Positions 7,200 to 14,541 of a DNA stretch of 64,000 nucleotides are shown piece after piece. How positions within the stretch are numbered: position 1 is the stretch's first letter; the number at the start of each line of letters is the position of its first letter. The notes under the pieces are model-generated. The model searched no databases. It was not told where the DNA came from and saw only the letters and a list, made by a program, of their open reading frames with translations. Source of the stretch: Patescibacteria group bacterium (GTDB lineage: Bacteria; Patescibacteriota; Patescibacteriia; UBA2591; JAQUPP01); contig JAQUOF010000002.1 in the NCBI GenBank assembly GCA_028717225.1, positions 19,249 through 83,248 of the forward strand, read 5' to 3'. The position numbers were made by a program, and so were the translations under genes.

Positions 7200-8291
7200 T
7201 TATTTTTTATTTAAATATTCTATGTGACAAAATTTCGGCTGTTTTTTCTCAAAATCCCAAAGATGCACGGACCCGCCAAGACACTCTTCCCAATGTTGGC
7301 ATTGACTGCACTTATTACAATAAAGCCGATTTTTATTGCGGAAAAAATCATATTTATTATTCCATACTTCTGAAAAATTATCAACTTTAACATTACCCTG
7401 TATTAATTCCGGTTGTCGTGGAACATTTGGACAAACAAAAATATCGCCATTATATAAAATACTGGCAACAGTGATTCCGGTGCCGCAGAAAAAATATTCA
7501 TCACGCACTTCTCCTTCAAAGTCCCAACCTAAAAATCCAATACAGCTATATTTTACTTCCACTTTTTTATTCTCGCGGCGTTTTTGTCTGATAAATTCTA
7601 ATAATTCTTTCAATTGTTTGGGAGTTAAAAGAATTTTTTCATTATTTTCGGCGCGGCCTATCGGATCAATATTCATTAATCGCCAAGAACTAATACCAAG
7701 CGGTAAAAAAGTTTTATACATCTCTTCTAATTGGGAAAAATTACCCTGATGAACAGAAGTGGTTATTTGCAAATCTTTCAGGAAATTCGCTTGCGCCATT
7801 AATTTAACGGCATTTATTGCCTTCTCATAAGCACCCGGCATATGCCGAAAATTATCATGAACTGAATCCAAGCCGTCAATACTGACAACAACCGTGGACA
7901 TACCGGATTTTTTCATTTTTTCTACTGTATCTTCGTTAACCAAATAACCATTGGTAACCATACCCCACTGAAAACCCAATGAGTGCGCATATTCCATAAC
8001 TTCAAAAAGATCCGATCTTAAAAGAGGCTCACCGCCGGTAATTGCCAGCATAATTTTTTTTGAATCAAAATTATGAGCAATCTCTTTAAATGTTTTTTTT
8101 ATTTCCTCCGTAGAAAGTTGATTGGCGGAATAATCATTACGCCCTGCCCTGCTGCCGCAGTGGTCGCAAAAAAAATTACAATTTAAAGTGCATTCCCAAA
8201 ACAAATAATAGAGAGGATGCTCTCCTCTCAATTTTTCTCTATAGTAAGATAATAATTTAAATTTTCCCGCTTTGAGAATTTTTTTGAGCAT
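7200..8291 (-). CDS. Radical SAM enzyme with C-terminal SPASM domain (peptide-modifying maturase type)
   Basis: CX3CX2C cluster (CNFFCDHC) near the N-terminus. GGEPLL motif. C-terminal Cys-rich SPASM region (CPNVPRQPE...CNKCSQCQHWEECLGG). Its start overlaps the last 35 nt of the upstream small peptide gene. Confidence 0.8.
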   Translation of the reverse strand: MLKKILKAGKFKLLSYYREKLRGEHPLYYLFWECTLNCNFFCDHCGSRAGRNDYSANQLSTEEIKKTFKEIAHNFDSKKIMLAITGGEPLLRSDLFEVMEYAHSLGFQWGMVTNGYLVNEDTVEKMKKSGMSTVVVSIDGLDSVHDNFRHMPGAYEKAINAVKLMAQANFLKDLQITTSVHQGNFSQLEEMYKTFLPLGISSWRLMNIDPIGRAENNEKILLTPKQLKELLEFIRQKRRENKKVEVKYSCIGFLGWDFEGEVRDEYFFCGTGITVASILYNGDIFVCPNVPRQPELIQGNVKVDNFSEVWNNKYDFFRNKNRLYCNKCSQCQHWEECLGGSVHLWDFEKKQPKFCHIEYLNKK

Positions 8292-8532
8292 TTAATTTCT
8301 TTTTATTTCTTCGCCAACGTTTGATAAGGAAGATTATGCCAATAATAAAAATTATTGGTAAGAATAAGATTTTAGATAAACGAAAAAATGTTATCTTTGC
8401 AATGACAGGATCAGAATATTGCATTGGACCATAAAGCTCTTGCGCCGTAACCTTTTGAGTTAAAAGAAAAAGAGTCGAGCCAATACCGGCGAAATAGGTT
8501 ATAAATTTTATGTTTTTATTAAATTTTTTCAT
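8257..8532 (-). CDS. Small secreted/membrane-anchored peptide, paralog 1 (91 aa): signal peptide, variable core, C-terminal TM plus basic tail
   Basis: MKKFNKNIKFITYF...AxA signal peptide. C-terminal LPIIFIIGIIFLIKRWRRNKKKLNAQKNSQ. It is one of three tandem paralogs with near-identical DNA at both ends and a divergent middle. Confidence 0.55.
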   Translation of the reverse strand: MKKFNKNIKFITYFAGIGSTLFLLTQKVTAQELYGPMQYSDPVIAKITFFRLSKILFLPIIFIIGIIFLIKRWRRNKKKLNAQKNSQSGKI

Positions 8533-8843
8533 ATCTTTCCATTTTGAGAATTTTTTTGAGCATTTAATTTCTTTTTATTTCTTCGCCAACGTTTGATAAG
8601 GAAGATTATGCCAATAATAAAAATTATTGGGAGAAATATTCCTTTCCATAAAGCCCACCATATATCCCCTGCATTCCTAGCCCCTATGTCTGGACCATAA
8701 GCATATTGTGTAGCTTGACGGAAATTACTCAGGTCTGGATTAAGTTCTGTTGCTGCCATGGCTTTTTGAACTAAAAGAAAAAGAGTCGAGCCGATACTGG
8801 CAAGATAGGTTATAAATTTTATGTTTTTATTAAATTTTTTCAT
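8529..8843 (-). CDS. Small secreted/membrane-anchored peptide, paralog 2 (104 aa)
   Basis: Same N- and C-terminal modules as paralog 1. The variable core is TELNPDLSNFRQATQYAYGPDIGARNAGDIWWALWKG. It overlaps its neighbours by 4 nt. Confidence 0.55.
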   Translation of the reverse strand: MKKFNKNIKFITYLASIGSTLFLLVQKAMAATELNPDLSNFRQATQYAYGPDIGARNAGDIWWALWKGIFLPIIFIIGIIFLIKRWRRNKKKLNAQKNSQNGKI

Positions 8844-9157
8844 ATCTTTCCATTTTGAGAATTTTTTTGAGCATTTAATTTCTTTTTATTTCTTCGCAAA
8901 TGTTTGATAAAAAAAATTATTCCAATAATAAAAATTATTGGGAAAAATAAAAATTTTAATAGGAGAAGATATTCCCCACTTGTAGTATTAGGATTGGGGC
9001 CAAAAGTAGATGGTGCTGGACCGTAAGCAGCTTGTCTAAAATTCCCAAGTTCATTATTCATTTCTTGTGCCATGACTTTTTGGGCTAAAAGAAAAAGAAT
9101 TGAGCCAATACTGATAAAATAGGTTATAAATTTTATGTTTTTATTAAATTTTTTCAT
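8840..9157 (-). CDS. Small secreted/membrane-anchored peptide, paralog 3 (105 aa)
   Basis: Same flanking modules. The variable core is EMNNELGNFRQAAYGPAPSTFGPNPNTTSGEYLLLLKF. Confidence 0.55.
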   Translation of the reverse strand: MKKFNKNIKFITYFISIGSILFLLAQKVMAQEMNNELGNFRQAAYGPAPSTFGPNPNTTSGEYLLLLKFLFFPIIFIIGIIFFIKHLRRNKKKLNAQKNSQNGKI

Positions 9158-9256
9158 AAAATATATATTCAGTATACAATAAATGATAAAAAATTACAAA
9201 CTTTTTTATCCACTATCTTTATCCTGTTCTTTCAAGTGCCCTCAGCAGGAATTTCA

Positions 9257-9357
9257 CCCCCACACCAATCCCCTCGACAGGAATCGAACCCGTATCTTAA
9301 GCTCCGGAAGCTTATGTTCTATCCGTTGAACTACAAGGGGGACGATTGGTGTGGGGG
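9257..9357. repeat. 14-bp perfect inverted repeat bracketing the tRNA-Arg gene: cccccacaccaatc at 9257-9270 and gattggtgtggggg at 9344-9357
   Basis: Read directly from the sequence. In the precursor RNA, the leader and trailer would form a 12-14 bp helix that extends the acceptor stem. Confidence 0.7.
9269..9340 (-). tRNA. tRNA-Arg (anticodon CCG), 72 nt, CCA not encoded
   Basis: Hand-folded cloverleaf: acceptor CCCCTTG/CGAGGGG, D-stem GTTC/GAAC, anticodon stem TAAGC/GCTTA with loop TTCCGGA, T-arm ACGGG-TTCGATT-CCTGT. The GGAATCGAACC hallmark is on the plus strand. Confidence 0.8.
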
Positions 9358-10012: not shown

Positions 10013-11509
10013 TTATGATAATTTACTTAGCTCCTCGTGATAAATCTTTAGTATTTTATTTTTTATCTCTTTTGGCATATTGATTGTCTGATGAATGCCA
10101 AAAAATTTCTTTCTCAATTTTTTCTCTTTTCTTTCCGCTTCTTTTAAATATTTTCTCTTGAAAATTTCAATCAATTCGCCTTTGGCTCCATGGCGATAAG
10201 CGAGCAAAAATGACAATAGTTGCTCTTCTCTTACTGCCGGCGGCTTCTCGTAATAAGTGGTAATTTTTTTCGCAAACAGCGGATAAAGTTTCTGATATTT
10301 TTTCTCAAATAAATTTTTCTTAAAACCTATTTTTTCAGGATCGCCGCCAACCGCCATTGAATAAAGAAAAGCTCTGGCGCACATCGGACAATTATAGCAC
10401 CATCTGTCTTCGCTGTCCCCTTCAGGAGAACAAGACATCATATATTTCAGCAGATGTGGATAGCGGGAATAAAGAATTTTCATTTCGGCGAGGTTGTAAA
10501 TCGGTTCAACCAAGCTTGTTATTTGCAGGTTGCCTTTTGTCAATTTATTTAAAAGTTGATTCCCTCTTTCAGTATAAACGCTTGTCTGATCATAGGAAGG
10601 AAAAGCTTTAATGCCGAATTTATTAATAAATGAATCGTCAAAATTTTTCTCATTACCCAAGATTATGTATTTTGCTCCATAATAATAAGCAAACGGCAGA
10701 AGTTCAAGAATAAAAGTTATCATGGCATTGGCTTGTTCCAAATCTTCGGCTTTTTCCCGGATTTTTTTGTTTTCAATCAGCCGGTCAACTTTTTCTTTAA
10801 AATCAACATTATCTTTCAAAAAATTAATTTTTTCTTTTTGTTCTCGCTGAAAATCGGCAAAAATTTTTCTTCTGAATTTATAATCAGTTGAATCAAATTT
10901 TTCAATTTCATCATCAACCGAAGTGACAAAGCATTTGAATCCGATTTCTTTGGCTAAACCGTAAGACAACAAACTGTCTTTGCCGAGAGATAGAGCCAAA
11001 ATTGCTTGATTGCCGCGAGTCGGCTTTTGTGGAATTAATTTTGATTTTTGAGCTGAAACTTTTAAAAATTTATTTTTCTTGTCTTTGTATGATTTAAAAC
11101 AATCAATTAATTTTTTTGTATTGATTTCCATGTCTTCGCTGATCCGCGGCAAATCAAACATCAATCCTTGATCAATAAAATTTTTCAAAAAAGGCCGAGG
11201 AAAGTTATAATCAGATATTCGCTTCATAACAACTCCGAGTGGCGCAGTACGCGAGTAAATAAAATTTTCAATCAATATATTTTTGGCATTTAAAGAAAGC
11301 GAGTCCAATATCTTCTTGGGATAGCTTAAAGAATATTTGATTCCTGAAATGTAAAAATCAAAACTGGTTGGATTATTTTGATAAGAAATTTTAAGAGGGT
11401 TATCTTTTTGAATAGATTTTTGGGCCATTACTAATAGATAAGTATTATTAAACTTCTTGTTCTTTTTTAGTAATAATAATTTCGCTGAACAATTCATTCT
11501 GGTCAACAA
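10013..11509 (-). CDS. QueC-like / PP-loop (adenine nucleotide alpha-hydrolase) superfamily protein with N- and C-terminal extensions. The real start is probably the internal Met at ~11428 (MAQKS).
   Basis: Degenerate PP-loop ILALSLGKDS (SGGxDS-like) followed ~190 aa later by a Zn-type cluster CX11CX2CX2C (CSPEGDSEDRWCYNCPMC). This spacing resembles QueC. The annotated 5' end overlaps scpA by 62 nt. Confidence 0.35.
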   Translation of the reverse strand: MLTRMNCSAKLLLLKKNKKFNNTYLLVMAQKSIQKDNPLKISYQNNPTSFDFYISGIKYSLSYPKKILDSLSLNAKNILIENFIYSRTAPLGVVMKRISDYNFPRPFLKNFIDQGLMFDLPRISEDMEINTKKLIDCFKSYKDKKNKFLKVSAQKSKLIPQKPTRGNQAILALSLGKDSLLSYGLAKEIGFKCFVTSVDDEIEKFDSTDYKFRRKIFADFQREQKEKINFLKDNVDFKEKVDRLIENKKIREKAEDLEQANAMITFILELLPFAYYYGAKYIILGNEKNFDDSFINKFGIKAFPSYDQTSVYTERGNQLLNKLTKGNLQITSLVEPIYNLAEMKILYSRYPHLLKYMMSCSPEGDSEDRWCYNCPMCARAFLYSMAVGGDPEKIGFKKNLFEKKYQKLYPLFAKKITTYYEKPPAVREEQLLSFLLAYRHGAKGELIEIFKRKYLKEAERKEKKLRKKFFGIHQTINMPKEIKNKILKIYHEELSKLS

Positions 11510-12996: not shown

Positions 12997-14541
12997 TTAC
13001 TTTTTAAAAGATGTCGGACCCCGCTTAATCGCTTCATTAAATGGAGTATTATTTCTGGGCTGAGACTGAAAAACCTGACGATTTTTCTTCAAACAATCCT
13101 TGCAATAAATCGGCCTGATACCATCGGGAACAAACGGGACAAAAACAGTTTTGCCGCAACCATTACACACCGCTTCATATTTATCAACTCTTGATTCTTG
13201 AGATAAAGTTTGGCCGGCAGCCAAAACGCCGCTCCAGCGCATTATTTTTTCTTCAACCTGTTTTCTCGGTTCAGTGTATCGTTCGCGGGAAACTCTGATA
13301 ATTTTTTCTTTATTGTCTTCTACAATAGAAAGCGGGGGCAAAGTGGCGGCGGAAAACGGCTCGGAAGTGATGCCGTTAATCATCAATTTGACGTAAATAT
13401 TATATTTGTCCAAATCAACCAAATCGGTTTCTTCAAAACGAGGAGCGAATTCTTTGGCTAAAAATTCCGCGTCTTCAGCGCCAACCCTGAAAATAACCAT
13501 TGTGCCGACATTGCCGAATACGGCATCGCGCACTTTGCTGGAAGTTTCAGTGGCCAATTGGCCGATATATTGATGAGCAATAACCAAATTAAGATGATAT
13601 TTTCTGGCCTCGGAAAGAATATTGGCGAAAGAATCAGTGGCAAAATTTTGAAATTCATCAACATAAAGATAAAAATCATGACGGTCTATTTCGGGAATAT
13701 TAATTCTGCTCATGGCCGCCAATTGGATCTTGGTAATCATCATCGCGCCCAAAAGCGACGAAGCATCTTCGCCGATTCTGCCCTTGGAAAGATTCATTAT
13801 TAAAATTTTCTTTTCGTCCATTATCTGCCGCAAATCAATTTTTGATTTTATCTGACCGACAATATTTCTAATTAAAGCCGTAGAAAGAAATTGTCCAACT
13901 TTATTTTGAATTGGAGCAATGGCTTCGGCTCTTAAACGATCCGGATATTTCGGATATTCATCCAGCCAAAAAGCTTTAACCACCGGATCACTCAATTGGT
14001 CAACCACTTTGCCGCGGAATTCTTTATCAACCAAAATACGCATAATTCCAAGCAAAGTACTGCCCGGATATTCCAAAAGCGCCAAAATGGCGTTTCTTAA
14101 AACATATTCCAATCTCGGACCCCAAGAGTCAGCCCAAATTTTCTTAAAAATTCCAATCAAACCCGAAGCGACCAAATGCCGTTCCCCTGTTTCAACTCTT
14201 TCCAGAACGTTAAATGCAAACGGATATTCATAATCCGCCGGATTAAAATAAACCGTATCGTTAATACGATTCGCCGGAATAAATTCCAATGCTTTTTCGG
14301 CCAAATCGCCATGAGGATCGACAATTGCCACGCCATGTCCGGCAATAATATCCTGATAAATCATATTTTCCAACACGGTTGACTTGCCTACGCCGGTTTT
14401 TCCGACAATATACATATGCCGGCGCCGATCGTCGGTTCTAATGCCGAATTTTTGTCTTCTGCTGCGATAATTCGTTTCCGCAAATAAAATAACCTCATCT
14501 TCAATTTCTTTCTTTTTGATTTTGTCTTGTTCGGATTCCAT
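12997..14541 (-). CDS. HerA/FtsK-like (DUF87-type) P-loop ATPase with C-terminal zinc ribbon
   Basis: Walker A IVGKTGVGKST is followed by a DPHGDL motif (HerA/DUF87-like DPHGEY). The C-terminus has CNGCGK...YCKDC. Confidence 0.5.
   Translation of the reverse strand: MESEQDKIKKKEIEDEVILFAETNYRSRRQKFGIRTDDRRRHMYIVGKTGVGKSTVLENMIYQDIIAGHGVAIVDPHGDLAEKALEFIPANRINDTVYFNPADYEYPFAFNVLERVETGERHLVASGLIGIFKKIWADSWGPRLEYVLRNAILALLEYPGSTLLGIMRILVDKEFRGKVVDQLSDPVVKAFWLDEYPKYPDRLRAEAIAPIQNKVGQFLSTALIRNIVGQIKSKIDLRQIMDEKKILIMNLSKGRIGEDASSLLGAMMITKIQLAAMSRINIPEIDRHDFYLYVDEFQNFATDSFANILSEARKYHLNLVIAHQYIGQLATETSSKVRDAVFGNVGTMVIFRVGAEDAEFLAKEFAPRFEETDLVDLDKYNIYVKLMINGITSEPFSAATLPPLSIVEDNKEKIIRVSRERYTEPRKQVEEKIMRWSGVLAAGQTLSQESRVDKYEAVCNGCGKTVFVPFVPDGIRPIYCKDCLKKNRQVFQSQPRNNTPFNEAIKRGPTSFKK

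Follow-up and report, generated by a model that had tools for sequence, protein, structure and literature searches.

A tandem array of small genes for putative Tyr-Gly membrane proteins beside a radical-SAM/SPASM enzyme in a Patescibacteria genome

The TIGR04133/TIGR04134 pair of Bacteroidota, two uncharacterised 'hypothetical equivalog' models including a 'radical SAM-associated putative lipoprotein', describes a radical S-adenosylmethionine (rSAM) enzyme and its small exported partner. A similar arrangement is found in the DNA analysed here, a 64,000-nucleotide stretch (the window) from a metagenome-assembled genome (MAG) of Patescibacteria (Candidate Phyla Radiation, CPR), where three small open reading frames (ORFs) in tandem, the distal, middle and proximal copies, precede a gene for an rSAM/SPASM enzyme (Table 1). 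TIGR04133, named 'rSAM_w_lipo', is the hidden Markov model (HMM) that best fits the window enzyme, at 330.2 bits, which is below the cut-off of 425, whereas a Bacteroidales control (L062) reaches 567.8 bits. In both cases the enzyme adjoins a small exported protein with Y-G-x-P near its mature N-terminus. The TIGR04134 model matches none of the window peptides at E ≤ 0.1 and none of the other CPR partners at E ≤ 1, compared to 96.6 bits for a Bacteroidales control. Moreover, the CPR partners differ from TIGR04134 lipoproteins in having a C-terminal transmembrane (TM) helix rather than a lipid, a length of ~75-130 amino acids (aa), an overlap with the rSAM gene, and an arrangement in tandem arrays. 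A literature search on TIGR04133, its lipoprotein name, or CPR rSAM precursors and ribosomally made, post-translationally modified peptides (RiPPs) returned nothing relevant. Our verdict is that the window carries a previously undescribed version, found in CPR, of the uncharacterised module of an rSAM enzyme and its partner typified by TIGR04133/TIGR04134, and that it may be splicease-like.

Spliceases (PlpX/PlpY, RhaX) are rSAM/SPASM enzymes encoded beside substrates, the spliceotides, that share only X-Y-G, as is the case here; Scott et al. reportedly covered 27 characterised and 939 predicted spliceases in 2022. The XYG motif is the target of these tyramine-excising enzymes (PMC11414181, PMC11626197), and their α-keto-β-amino acid products inhibit proteases (PMC11414181, PMC11626197, PMC9811515). 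The non-cyanobacterial spliceases were first found via YG-rich ORFs beside rSAM-SPASM genes (PMC10849128) and, like the window system, are binary, without a separate RiPP recognition element (RRE) protein (PMC11414181). In addition, sites of the window type resemble natural splice tags such as PIRPLYGLPI and AVAAMYGVVFP in having a hydrophobic residue at −1, a hydrophobic residue or Pro at +2, and Pro at +3 or +4 (PMC10533398), the resemblance being visible in the CPR sites LYGVFP, LYGPP, and MYGVELP. The two systems differ in that the substrates here have predicted Sec signal peptides and TM anchors in place of the Nif11/NHLP-type or helical leaders of spliceotides. Furthermore, the window enzyme lies outside the PlpX model family (IPR026482, which we take to be TIGR04103), scoring 132 bits against a cut-off of 725.

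Three other systems share some of these features. The enzyme anSME is an rSAM/SPASM protein of the same size, also without an RRE, with which the AlphaFold2 (AF2) model of the window enzyme aligns over the full length (TM-score about 0.7), and it modifies a short motif in proteins that are later exported through Sec. However, its motif is C/S-x-P-x-R rather than x-Y-G-x-P, its substrates are large enzymes rather than tiny anchored peptides, and the two enzymes are only ~20% identical. Precursor arrays of the prochlorosin or Nif11/NHLP kind similarly comprise tandem paralogues with conserved ends, unalignable middles, and one maturase, but both ends here are predicted targeting or anchoring elements, and dual coding with the N-terminus of the enzyme imposes some of the 3′ conservation. 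The small proteins also have the tripartite look (motif, TM helix, basic cluster) of C-terminal sorting signals of the sortase, exosortase, or archaeosortase type, since their TM helix often begins with [LS]-P and is followed by a K/R cluster; NCBIfam sorting-domain models gave E values of 0.1-0.7 on one relative only, and no search for a sorting enzyme was made.

It is likely, in our view, that the array is a set of three paralogues, each encoding a small type-I membrane protein that acts as a substrate of the adjoining rSAM/SPASM enzyme and whose ectodomain is swapped by recombination via the conserved ends. This reading is carried by the anatomy of the units, the association of the enzyme with Tyr-Gly proteins across phyla, the replacement of cores between strains, and the mosaic ends. 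The initial annotation, made from the sequence of this stretch, had described a tandem unit of 311-314 bp with a complete small ORF in each copy, which is borne out by a repeat search and the ORF list: the start-to-start spacing of the three copies is 311 and 314 nt, and the ORFs lie head to tail, with each stop overlapping the next ATG (ATGA). No fourth copy of the small gene was detected by tblastn and blastn in the 64-kb window, and the three small proteins match no Pfam or NCBIfam family.

Each unit encodes four parts, namely a signal-peptide-like start, a segment of 28-42 aa (the core), a TM helix, and a basic tail. The start consists of MKKFNKNIKFITY, a hydrophobic run, and the sequence VMA↓Q, AMA↓A, or VTA↓Q (arrow, putative cleavage site); the helix reads PIIFIIGIIF(L/F)I and the tail K(R/H)(W/L)RRNKKKLNAQKNSQ(N/S)GKI. 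Judged by the −3/−1 and positive-inside rules, the conserved N-terminus corresponds to a Sec-type signal peptide and the conserved C-terminus to a TM anchor with a basic tail, which does not fit the classical leader and core of a RiPP precursor and thereby departs from the precursor-peptide hallmark seen in the initial annotation. The ends had also been described as near-identical between copies. They are indeed conserved, but the wording was too strong, as identity is 100% over the first 39 nt in all copies, 87-90% over the first 90 nt, and 89-95% over the last 99 nt. Codon differences, counted only in the ends because the cores cannot be aligned, are mostly synonymous in the TM helix and tail and mixed in the signal peptide. 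The supposed complete divergence of the middle holds at the nucleotide level, where identity among the cores (0.48-0.60) lies at the shuffled baseline (0.47-0.56), but not at the protein level, where Y-G-P is kept in all three copies and N..L.NFRQA in two.

The Tyr-Gly dipeptide is present as AYG, AYG, and LYG in the window copies. When 18 small proteins from CPR were aligned, their partner rSAMs being 56-100% identical, only K2 and the Y and G of this pair proved invariant, so the core is not as free of constraint as had been implied. The dipeptide was also found in 33 of 37 CPR proteins picked purely by their position beside the rSAM gene and in all 18 further family members from a profile search. 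It falls in the ectodomain in 39 of 42 cases, compared to a mean of 5.8 and a maximum of 12 after shuffling, and the site follows the consensus Q(-3)-x-[L/M/E/A]-Y-G-[V/P/M/I]-[P/E/M]-P. Across 80 genome loci of TIGR04133-like rSAMs, fetched with an enzyme profile, YG occurs in 67 of the 94 adjacent ORFs with a signal-peptide-like start (71%) but in only 28 of 312 (9%) located more than 1.2 kb away (Fisher p = 5e-32), and 55 of the loci have an adjacent signal-peptide-like YG ORF.

Beyond these 80 loci, more were collected by other routes. CPR loci with the same type of protein upstream of the enzyme come from Saccharibacteria, Falkowbacteria, Gottesmanbacteria, Peregrinibacteria, Microgenomates, and Paceibacterota. 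The copy number across related genomes, which had been proposed as a check, ranges from one to five in these loci, with paralogue arrays in L086, L089, L090, L016, and L010, and all CPR homologues have a TM helix plus a K/R cluster at their end. Outside the CPR, the Clostridiales partner is a TM-anchored YG protein encoded downstream of the rSAM gene, [Y/L]YGCP occurs in small lipoproteins or in larger proteins of other Clostridia and of a Methanocorpusculum, and the Bacteroidales partners are TIGR04134 lipoproteins of 120-180 aa with YG.P right after the lipobox. The architecture of the partner thus varies among lineages while YG persists. The neighbours of the module vary by locus, and no conserved leader peptidase, C39-ABC exporter, or small RRE-like gene was found beside it. 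A metagenome scan with the rSAM sequence yielded five loci and a scan of viral contigs no relatives; a profile search with the 18 small proteins added no allele of this cassette among the 26 proteins it returned, and the statistics on copy number and alleles are accordingly thin.

In one group of loci from Clostridia and Methanocorpusculum (L034, L036, L037, L038, L040, L044, and L050), the rSAM protein has a C-terminal extension of ~170-200 aa without a Pfam match. The partner there takes two forms. One is a lipoprotein of 60-70 aa ending in ...[YL]YGCPNS.R.KKL.L.KKRR; the other is a ~190-210 aa protein in which a zinc-ribbon-like CxxC pair stands at the N-terminus and CLYGCPVSSELE close to the C-terminus.

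A sister strain (L001, L002, and L003; WC697_01995-02005) shows the same synteny and also has three copies, two of them with a replaced core. The two strains are colinear over 11.9 kb with a median identity of 99% per 100 nt, and the only deep troughs fall on the distal core (53%) and the proximal core (43%), in keeping with the diversifying core of the initial annotation. The middle core is 100% identical, as are the TM helix and tail of the same unit, compared to 92% identity in its signal peptide. The indels between the strains measure 3, 21, 3, and 30 nt and are all in frame. A third strain (P0003) has yet another proximal core, and the seven copies over the three strains are all intact ORFs with in-frame indels only. 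The contig of this third strain (P0003/P0007, ENA ERZ1426824, 4650 nt) begins 52 nt before the proximal small gene; its assembly therefore breaks inside the array, and copy number may be underestimated from short reads.

The three signal-peptide segments of the sister strain are 97-99% alike and share variants absent from every window copy. Together with the middle unit, in which identity rises to 100% from the core onward, this supports the homogenised flanks and gene conversion of the initial annotation, and the pattern reads as a signature of intragenomic conversion and mosaic recombination, with putative breakpoints where the signal peptide gives way to the core. Three independent assemblies of the sister array show no differences in 904 nt, and the alleles are therefore stable within the lineage. 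The core variation is between lineages and not a matter of rapid switching. This, and the lack of any sign of silent donor cassettes in the window, goes against the cassette-style variation that had also been suggested.

The units were further said to carry a fossil copy of the rSAM start. The relic mini-ORFs are present in the tails of the distal and middle copies, and over their first 21 nt they match the genuine rSAM start at 8291 without a difference. They are, however, not descended from an enzyme gene but are the small gene's own overlapping 3′ end. The last 35 nt of the proximal small ORF overlap the rSAM start in a different frame, so that one stretch of nucleotides encodes both the tail LNAQKNSQ and the enzyme's MLKKILK, and copying the small gene therefore copies the first 21 nt of the rSAM gene. 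The same overlap is found in single-copy CPR relatives, where it measures 35 nt (L004) or 20 nt (L005, L008, L012, and L014) and where 'NAKKNS'-type tails also occur; it is 35 nt in L086 and L087 as well. Judged from these sequences, the relic starts are by-products of small-gene duplication and not leftovers of a duplicated enzyme.

The enzyme has the rSAM motif CNFFCDHC (CX3CX2C) at residues 38-45, with cysteines that are invariant in 25 homologues, and it matches Pfam PF04055 (82.4 bits, cut-off 29.5) and the SPASM model PF13186 (33.6 bits, cut-off 21.5), with the full set of SPASM cysteines conserved (C250, C269, C287, C325, C328, C331, C337, and C355). After TIGR04133, the highest-scoring NCBIfam models include AhbD (171 bits), NirJ2 (158), and MftC (145), and TIGR04103 ranks 7th, behind TIGR04133, AhbD, NirJ2, TIGR04053, MftC, and NirJ. 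The AF2 model (predicted local distance difference test, pLDDT, 89.9) has its best Foldseek matches in SkfB, SuiB, BlsE, anSME, PqqE, ChlB, and EpeE, with E values of 1e-16 to 1e-10, and the modelled fold is thus closest to peptide- and protein-modifying SPASM/twitch enzymes. The family is large, with 4022 clusters at E < 1e-20; the best 120 of the 4022 are all at least 57% identical, and the few of these named by organism come from Patescibacteria, Moranbacteria, or Peregrinibacteria.

There is no N-terminal RRE domain, since the rSAM core begins at about residue 30 and leaves no room for one. The core is preceded by a conserved helix, MLKKILK.G.LK.WS.Y...LR (residues 2-24, pLDDT 84-93), whose first 12 codons are those dual-coded with the peptide tail, and this helix might be a peptide- or membrane-binding element in place of an RRE. 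A terminator-like hairpin within rSAM codons 21-27 has similar counterparts in the corresponding position of L004, L086, L090, and L007, which show some compensatory, synonymous changes; none was found in CPR loci further removed. The hairpin may act as an attenuator and so set the ratio of peptide to enzyme, although the indication is weak.

Table 1. Features of the small-gene array and its surroundings (window coordinates; sites and targeting elements are predictions)
Feature	Position	Strand	Remarks
Distal small ORF, 105 aa	8840-9157	minus	Complete ORF; P0005, PHG83_00790, deposited as hypothetical protein
Middle small ORF, 104 aa	8529-8843	minus	Complete ORF; P0001, PHG83_00785, deposited as hypothetical protein
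Proximal small ORF, 91 aa	8257-8532	minus	Complete ORF; P0006, PHG83_00780, deposited as hypothetical protein
rSAM/SPASM enzyme ORF, 363 aa	7200-8291	minus	Directly 3′ of the small-ORF array; presumed maturase
Signal peptide of distal copy, aa 1-30	9068-9157	minus	
Ectodomain of distal copy			QEMNNELGNFRQAAYGPAPSTFGPNPNTTSGEYLLLLKFLFF
TM helix of distal copy	about 8900-8941	minus	Starts PIIFIIG; basic tail after
Core of proximal copy			QELYGPMQYSDPVIAKITFFRLSKILFL; shortest of the three
Tyr45-Gly46 codons, distal copy	9020-9025	minus	Putative modification site
Tyr49-Gly50 codons, middle copy	8694-8699	minus	Putative modification site
Tyr34-Gly35 codons, proximal copy	8428-8433	minus	Putative modification site
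Relic rSAM start in tail of distal copy	8830-8874	minus	MLKKILKMERYEKI*, 14 codons
Relic rSAM start in tail of middle copy	8519-8563	minus	MLKKILKMERYEKI*, 14 codons
G+C-rich 7-bp hairpin, then U-rich UAUUAUUUGUUUU	8211-8229	minus	rSAM codons 21-27; ~30 nt past proximal stop; terminator-like match
Promoter-like TTGTAA-17-TATACT	9171-9199	minus	14 nt upstream of distal ATG; consensus match in an AT-rich region full of such matches
tRNA-Arg(CCG) gene	9269-9340		Upstream of array; scpB also upstream

In the proposed mechanism, the pre-protein would be modified in the cytoplasm by the enzyme at the invariant Tyr-Gly, and the unusually conserved signal-peptide region would probably serve as the enzyme's handle. 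The modified protein would then be exported via Sec and stay anchored, so that the modified site would face outward from the membrane and the basic tail would lie in the cytoplasm. The array would have arisen by duplication of the whole small gene, each extra copy bringing a dead rSAM start, and its conserved ends may be kept alike by dual coding, functional constraint, and intragenomic gene conversion. The same ends could double as homology arms for the wholesale replacement of ectodomain cores between lineages. The initial annotation's notion of a precursor-like family is preserved to the extent that whole genes stand beside an rSAM/SPASM enzyme and very probably encode its substrates.

Excision of tyramine, which of the described rSAM/SPASM reactions is the one defined by an X-Y-G motif, is the leading candidate for the chemistry, though we propose it only tentatively; the alternatives are cross-linking of the Tyr, epimerisation, or some other reaction directed at Tyr. 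Excising a tyramine equivalent (C8H9NO) at the YG site would change the mass by −135.07 Da. A wider proposal, somewhat doubtful as a whole, is that in CPR, Clostridia, Bacteroidota, and some methanogens the rSAM enzyme turns the invariant Tyr-Gly of small Sec-exported, membrane-anchored proteins into a surface-displayed non-canonical structure, most plausibly an α-keto-β-amino acid 'warhead' of the splicease type, and that cassette-like recombination diversifies the ectodomain to give a strain-specific surface reactivity or recognition for episymbiosis.

Several points weigh against the substrate reading of the array. The modification of Tyr-Gly is putative, and so are the signal peptide, the cleavage site, and the N-out/C-in orientation, all three predicted from the −3/−1 and positive-inside rules. 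The AhbD, NirJ2, and MftC models score higher on the enzyme than that of PlpX, outside whose family it lies, so no tie to spliceases in particular can be drawn from sequence. An artificial fusion of the proximal peptide with the rSAM enzyme, modelled by AF2, shows long helices and a pLDDT of only ~51 around residues 31-40, the YG region. The dipeptide itself has exceptions among the proteins picked by position, namely HG in L013, YR in L014 and L015, and a 189-aa ORF in L086, and one Bacilli clade has no adjacent YG ORF. Finally, the databases searched contain only three strain-level alleles of the cassette, and the recombination scenario rests on these few genomes.

The enzymes of L014 and L015 depart from residues that are otherwise invariant in the family, having HCES for HCGS and LKWLLWEC for L.YLFWEC, and L013, L014, and L015 (Paceibacterota, Kerfeldbacteria) may represent a functionally shifted or decaying branch. 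In Bacilli MAGs (L025, L027, L030, and L033), a P-loop (GKT) protein of 433-451 aa and of unidentified family is encoded directly upstream of the enzyme. The window and the sister strain encode a TraG/TrwB-like ATPase (514 aa, 12997-14541) 4.7 kb upstream of the array, which may be coincidence.

The array could instead encode classical secreted RiPP or bacteriocin precursors, in which the N-terminus would be a leader, the middle a released core, and the set of copies a combinatorial library made by nature. In this case one would expect paralogues in tandem beside an rSAM/SPASM enzyme, alike at the ends and variable between them, and XYG motifs of the spliceotide type normally occur in RiPP precursors (PMC11414181). 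However, the N-terminus is built like a Sec signal, with n, h, and c regions and VMA↓Q, AMA↓A, or VTA↓Q as its end, the helix and K/R cluster at the end of every CPR homologue point to retention in the membrane, the Bacteroidales partner is a lipoprotein of 120-180 aa, and the module, with its varying neighbours, has no conserved leader peptidase or C39-ABC exporter beside it, all of which makes secretion improbable. We regard it as similarly improbable that the small proteins are not substrates at all but unrelated membrane proteins, tethers, or regulators, with the enzyme acting on a tetrapyrrole or other cofactor. Such a role could be suggested by the heme-pathway models AhbD and NirJ2, the runners-up to TIGR04133 (171 and 158 bits), and by the clades without an adjacent YG ORF, but it sits poorly with the enrichment of YG beside the rSAM gene (p = 5e-32) and with its status as the sole feature conserved across four phyla despite differences in the size, anchoring, and position of the partner. 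A tether or regulator would be expected to keep an interaction surface rather than a dipeptide in an exported segment.

Programmed antigenic or phase variation, that is, rapid switching by gene conversion from donor cassettes or by a diversity-generating retroelement (DGR), could also produce conserved arms around scrambled cores and mosaic, homogenised ends, and DGRs are common in CPR. Nevertheless, the window holds no extra or silent copies and no template repeat, the three copies are complete and co-oriented with their own starts, the differences are indels and total replacement rather than adenine-targeted substitutions, and the sister array does not vary among its assemblies, so we consider switching quite improbable. 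Two specific versions were rejected: a silent-cassette model of the pilE/pilS type, as all copies are complete ORFs in an operon-like array with none elsewhere in the window, and a DGR target, as no second core copy exists in the 64 kb and the changes are indels or replacement, the genome-wide search for a reverse transcriptase not having been made. It is hardly credible, lastly, that the array consists of decaying duplicates with neutrally drifting cores or of spurious ORFs. Core nucleotide identity at the shuffled baseline and the AT-rich, low-complexity sequence would be in line with decay, but all seven copies in the three strains are intact with in-frame indels, every copy retains the signal peptide, YG(P), TM helix, and basic tail, the middle core is fully conserved between strains, and the architecture is conserved across CPR classes.

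If the small proteins are substrates of the enzyme, as we think likely, the locus gives a precise target, one Tyr-Gly in a peptide of ~75 residues. Many CPR classes retain the two-gene module despite their tiny genomes, although its products are annotated only as 'hypothetical protein' and 'radical SAM protein', and it is linked to the uncharacterised TIGR04133/TIGR04134 pair of gut Bacteroidota and to the clostridial and methanogen variants. Near-identical strains with swapped ectodomains constitute a natural experiment. If tyramine splicing takes place, ribosomal β-amino-acid and ketoamide chemistry would extend from soluble RiPPs to exported, membrane-anchored proteins, and it could serve these host-attached organisms at their surface, for instance by inhibiting proteases or by covalent-reversible adhesion. 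If the chemistry is a different one, the module would represent a new Tyr-Gly-directed rSAM reaction.

A 498-aa ORF (10013-11509, minus strand) lies between scpB and scpA, an unusual position between two kleisin-partner genes. It has no Pfam family and a weak NCBIfam match to MurL epimerase (E = 0.0013), and two motifs stand out in it, LSLGKDS, which is PP-loop-like, and CYNCPMC; its nucleotide sequence is 99.7% conserved in the sister strain.

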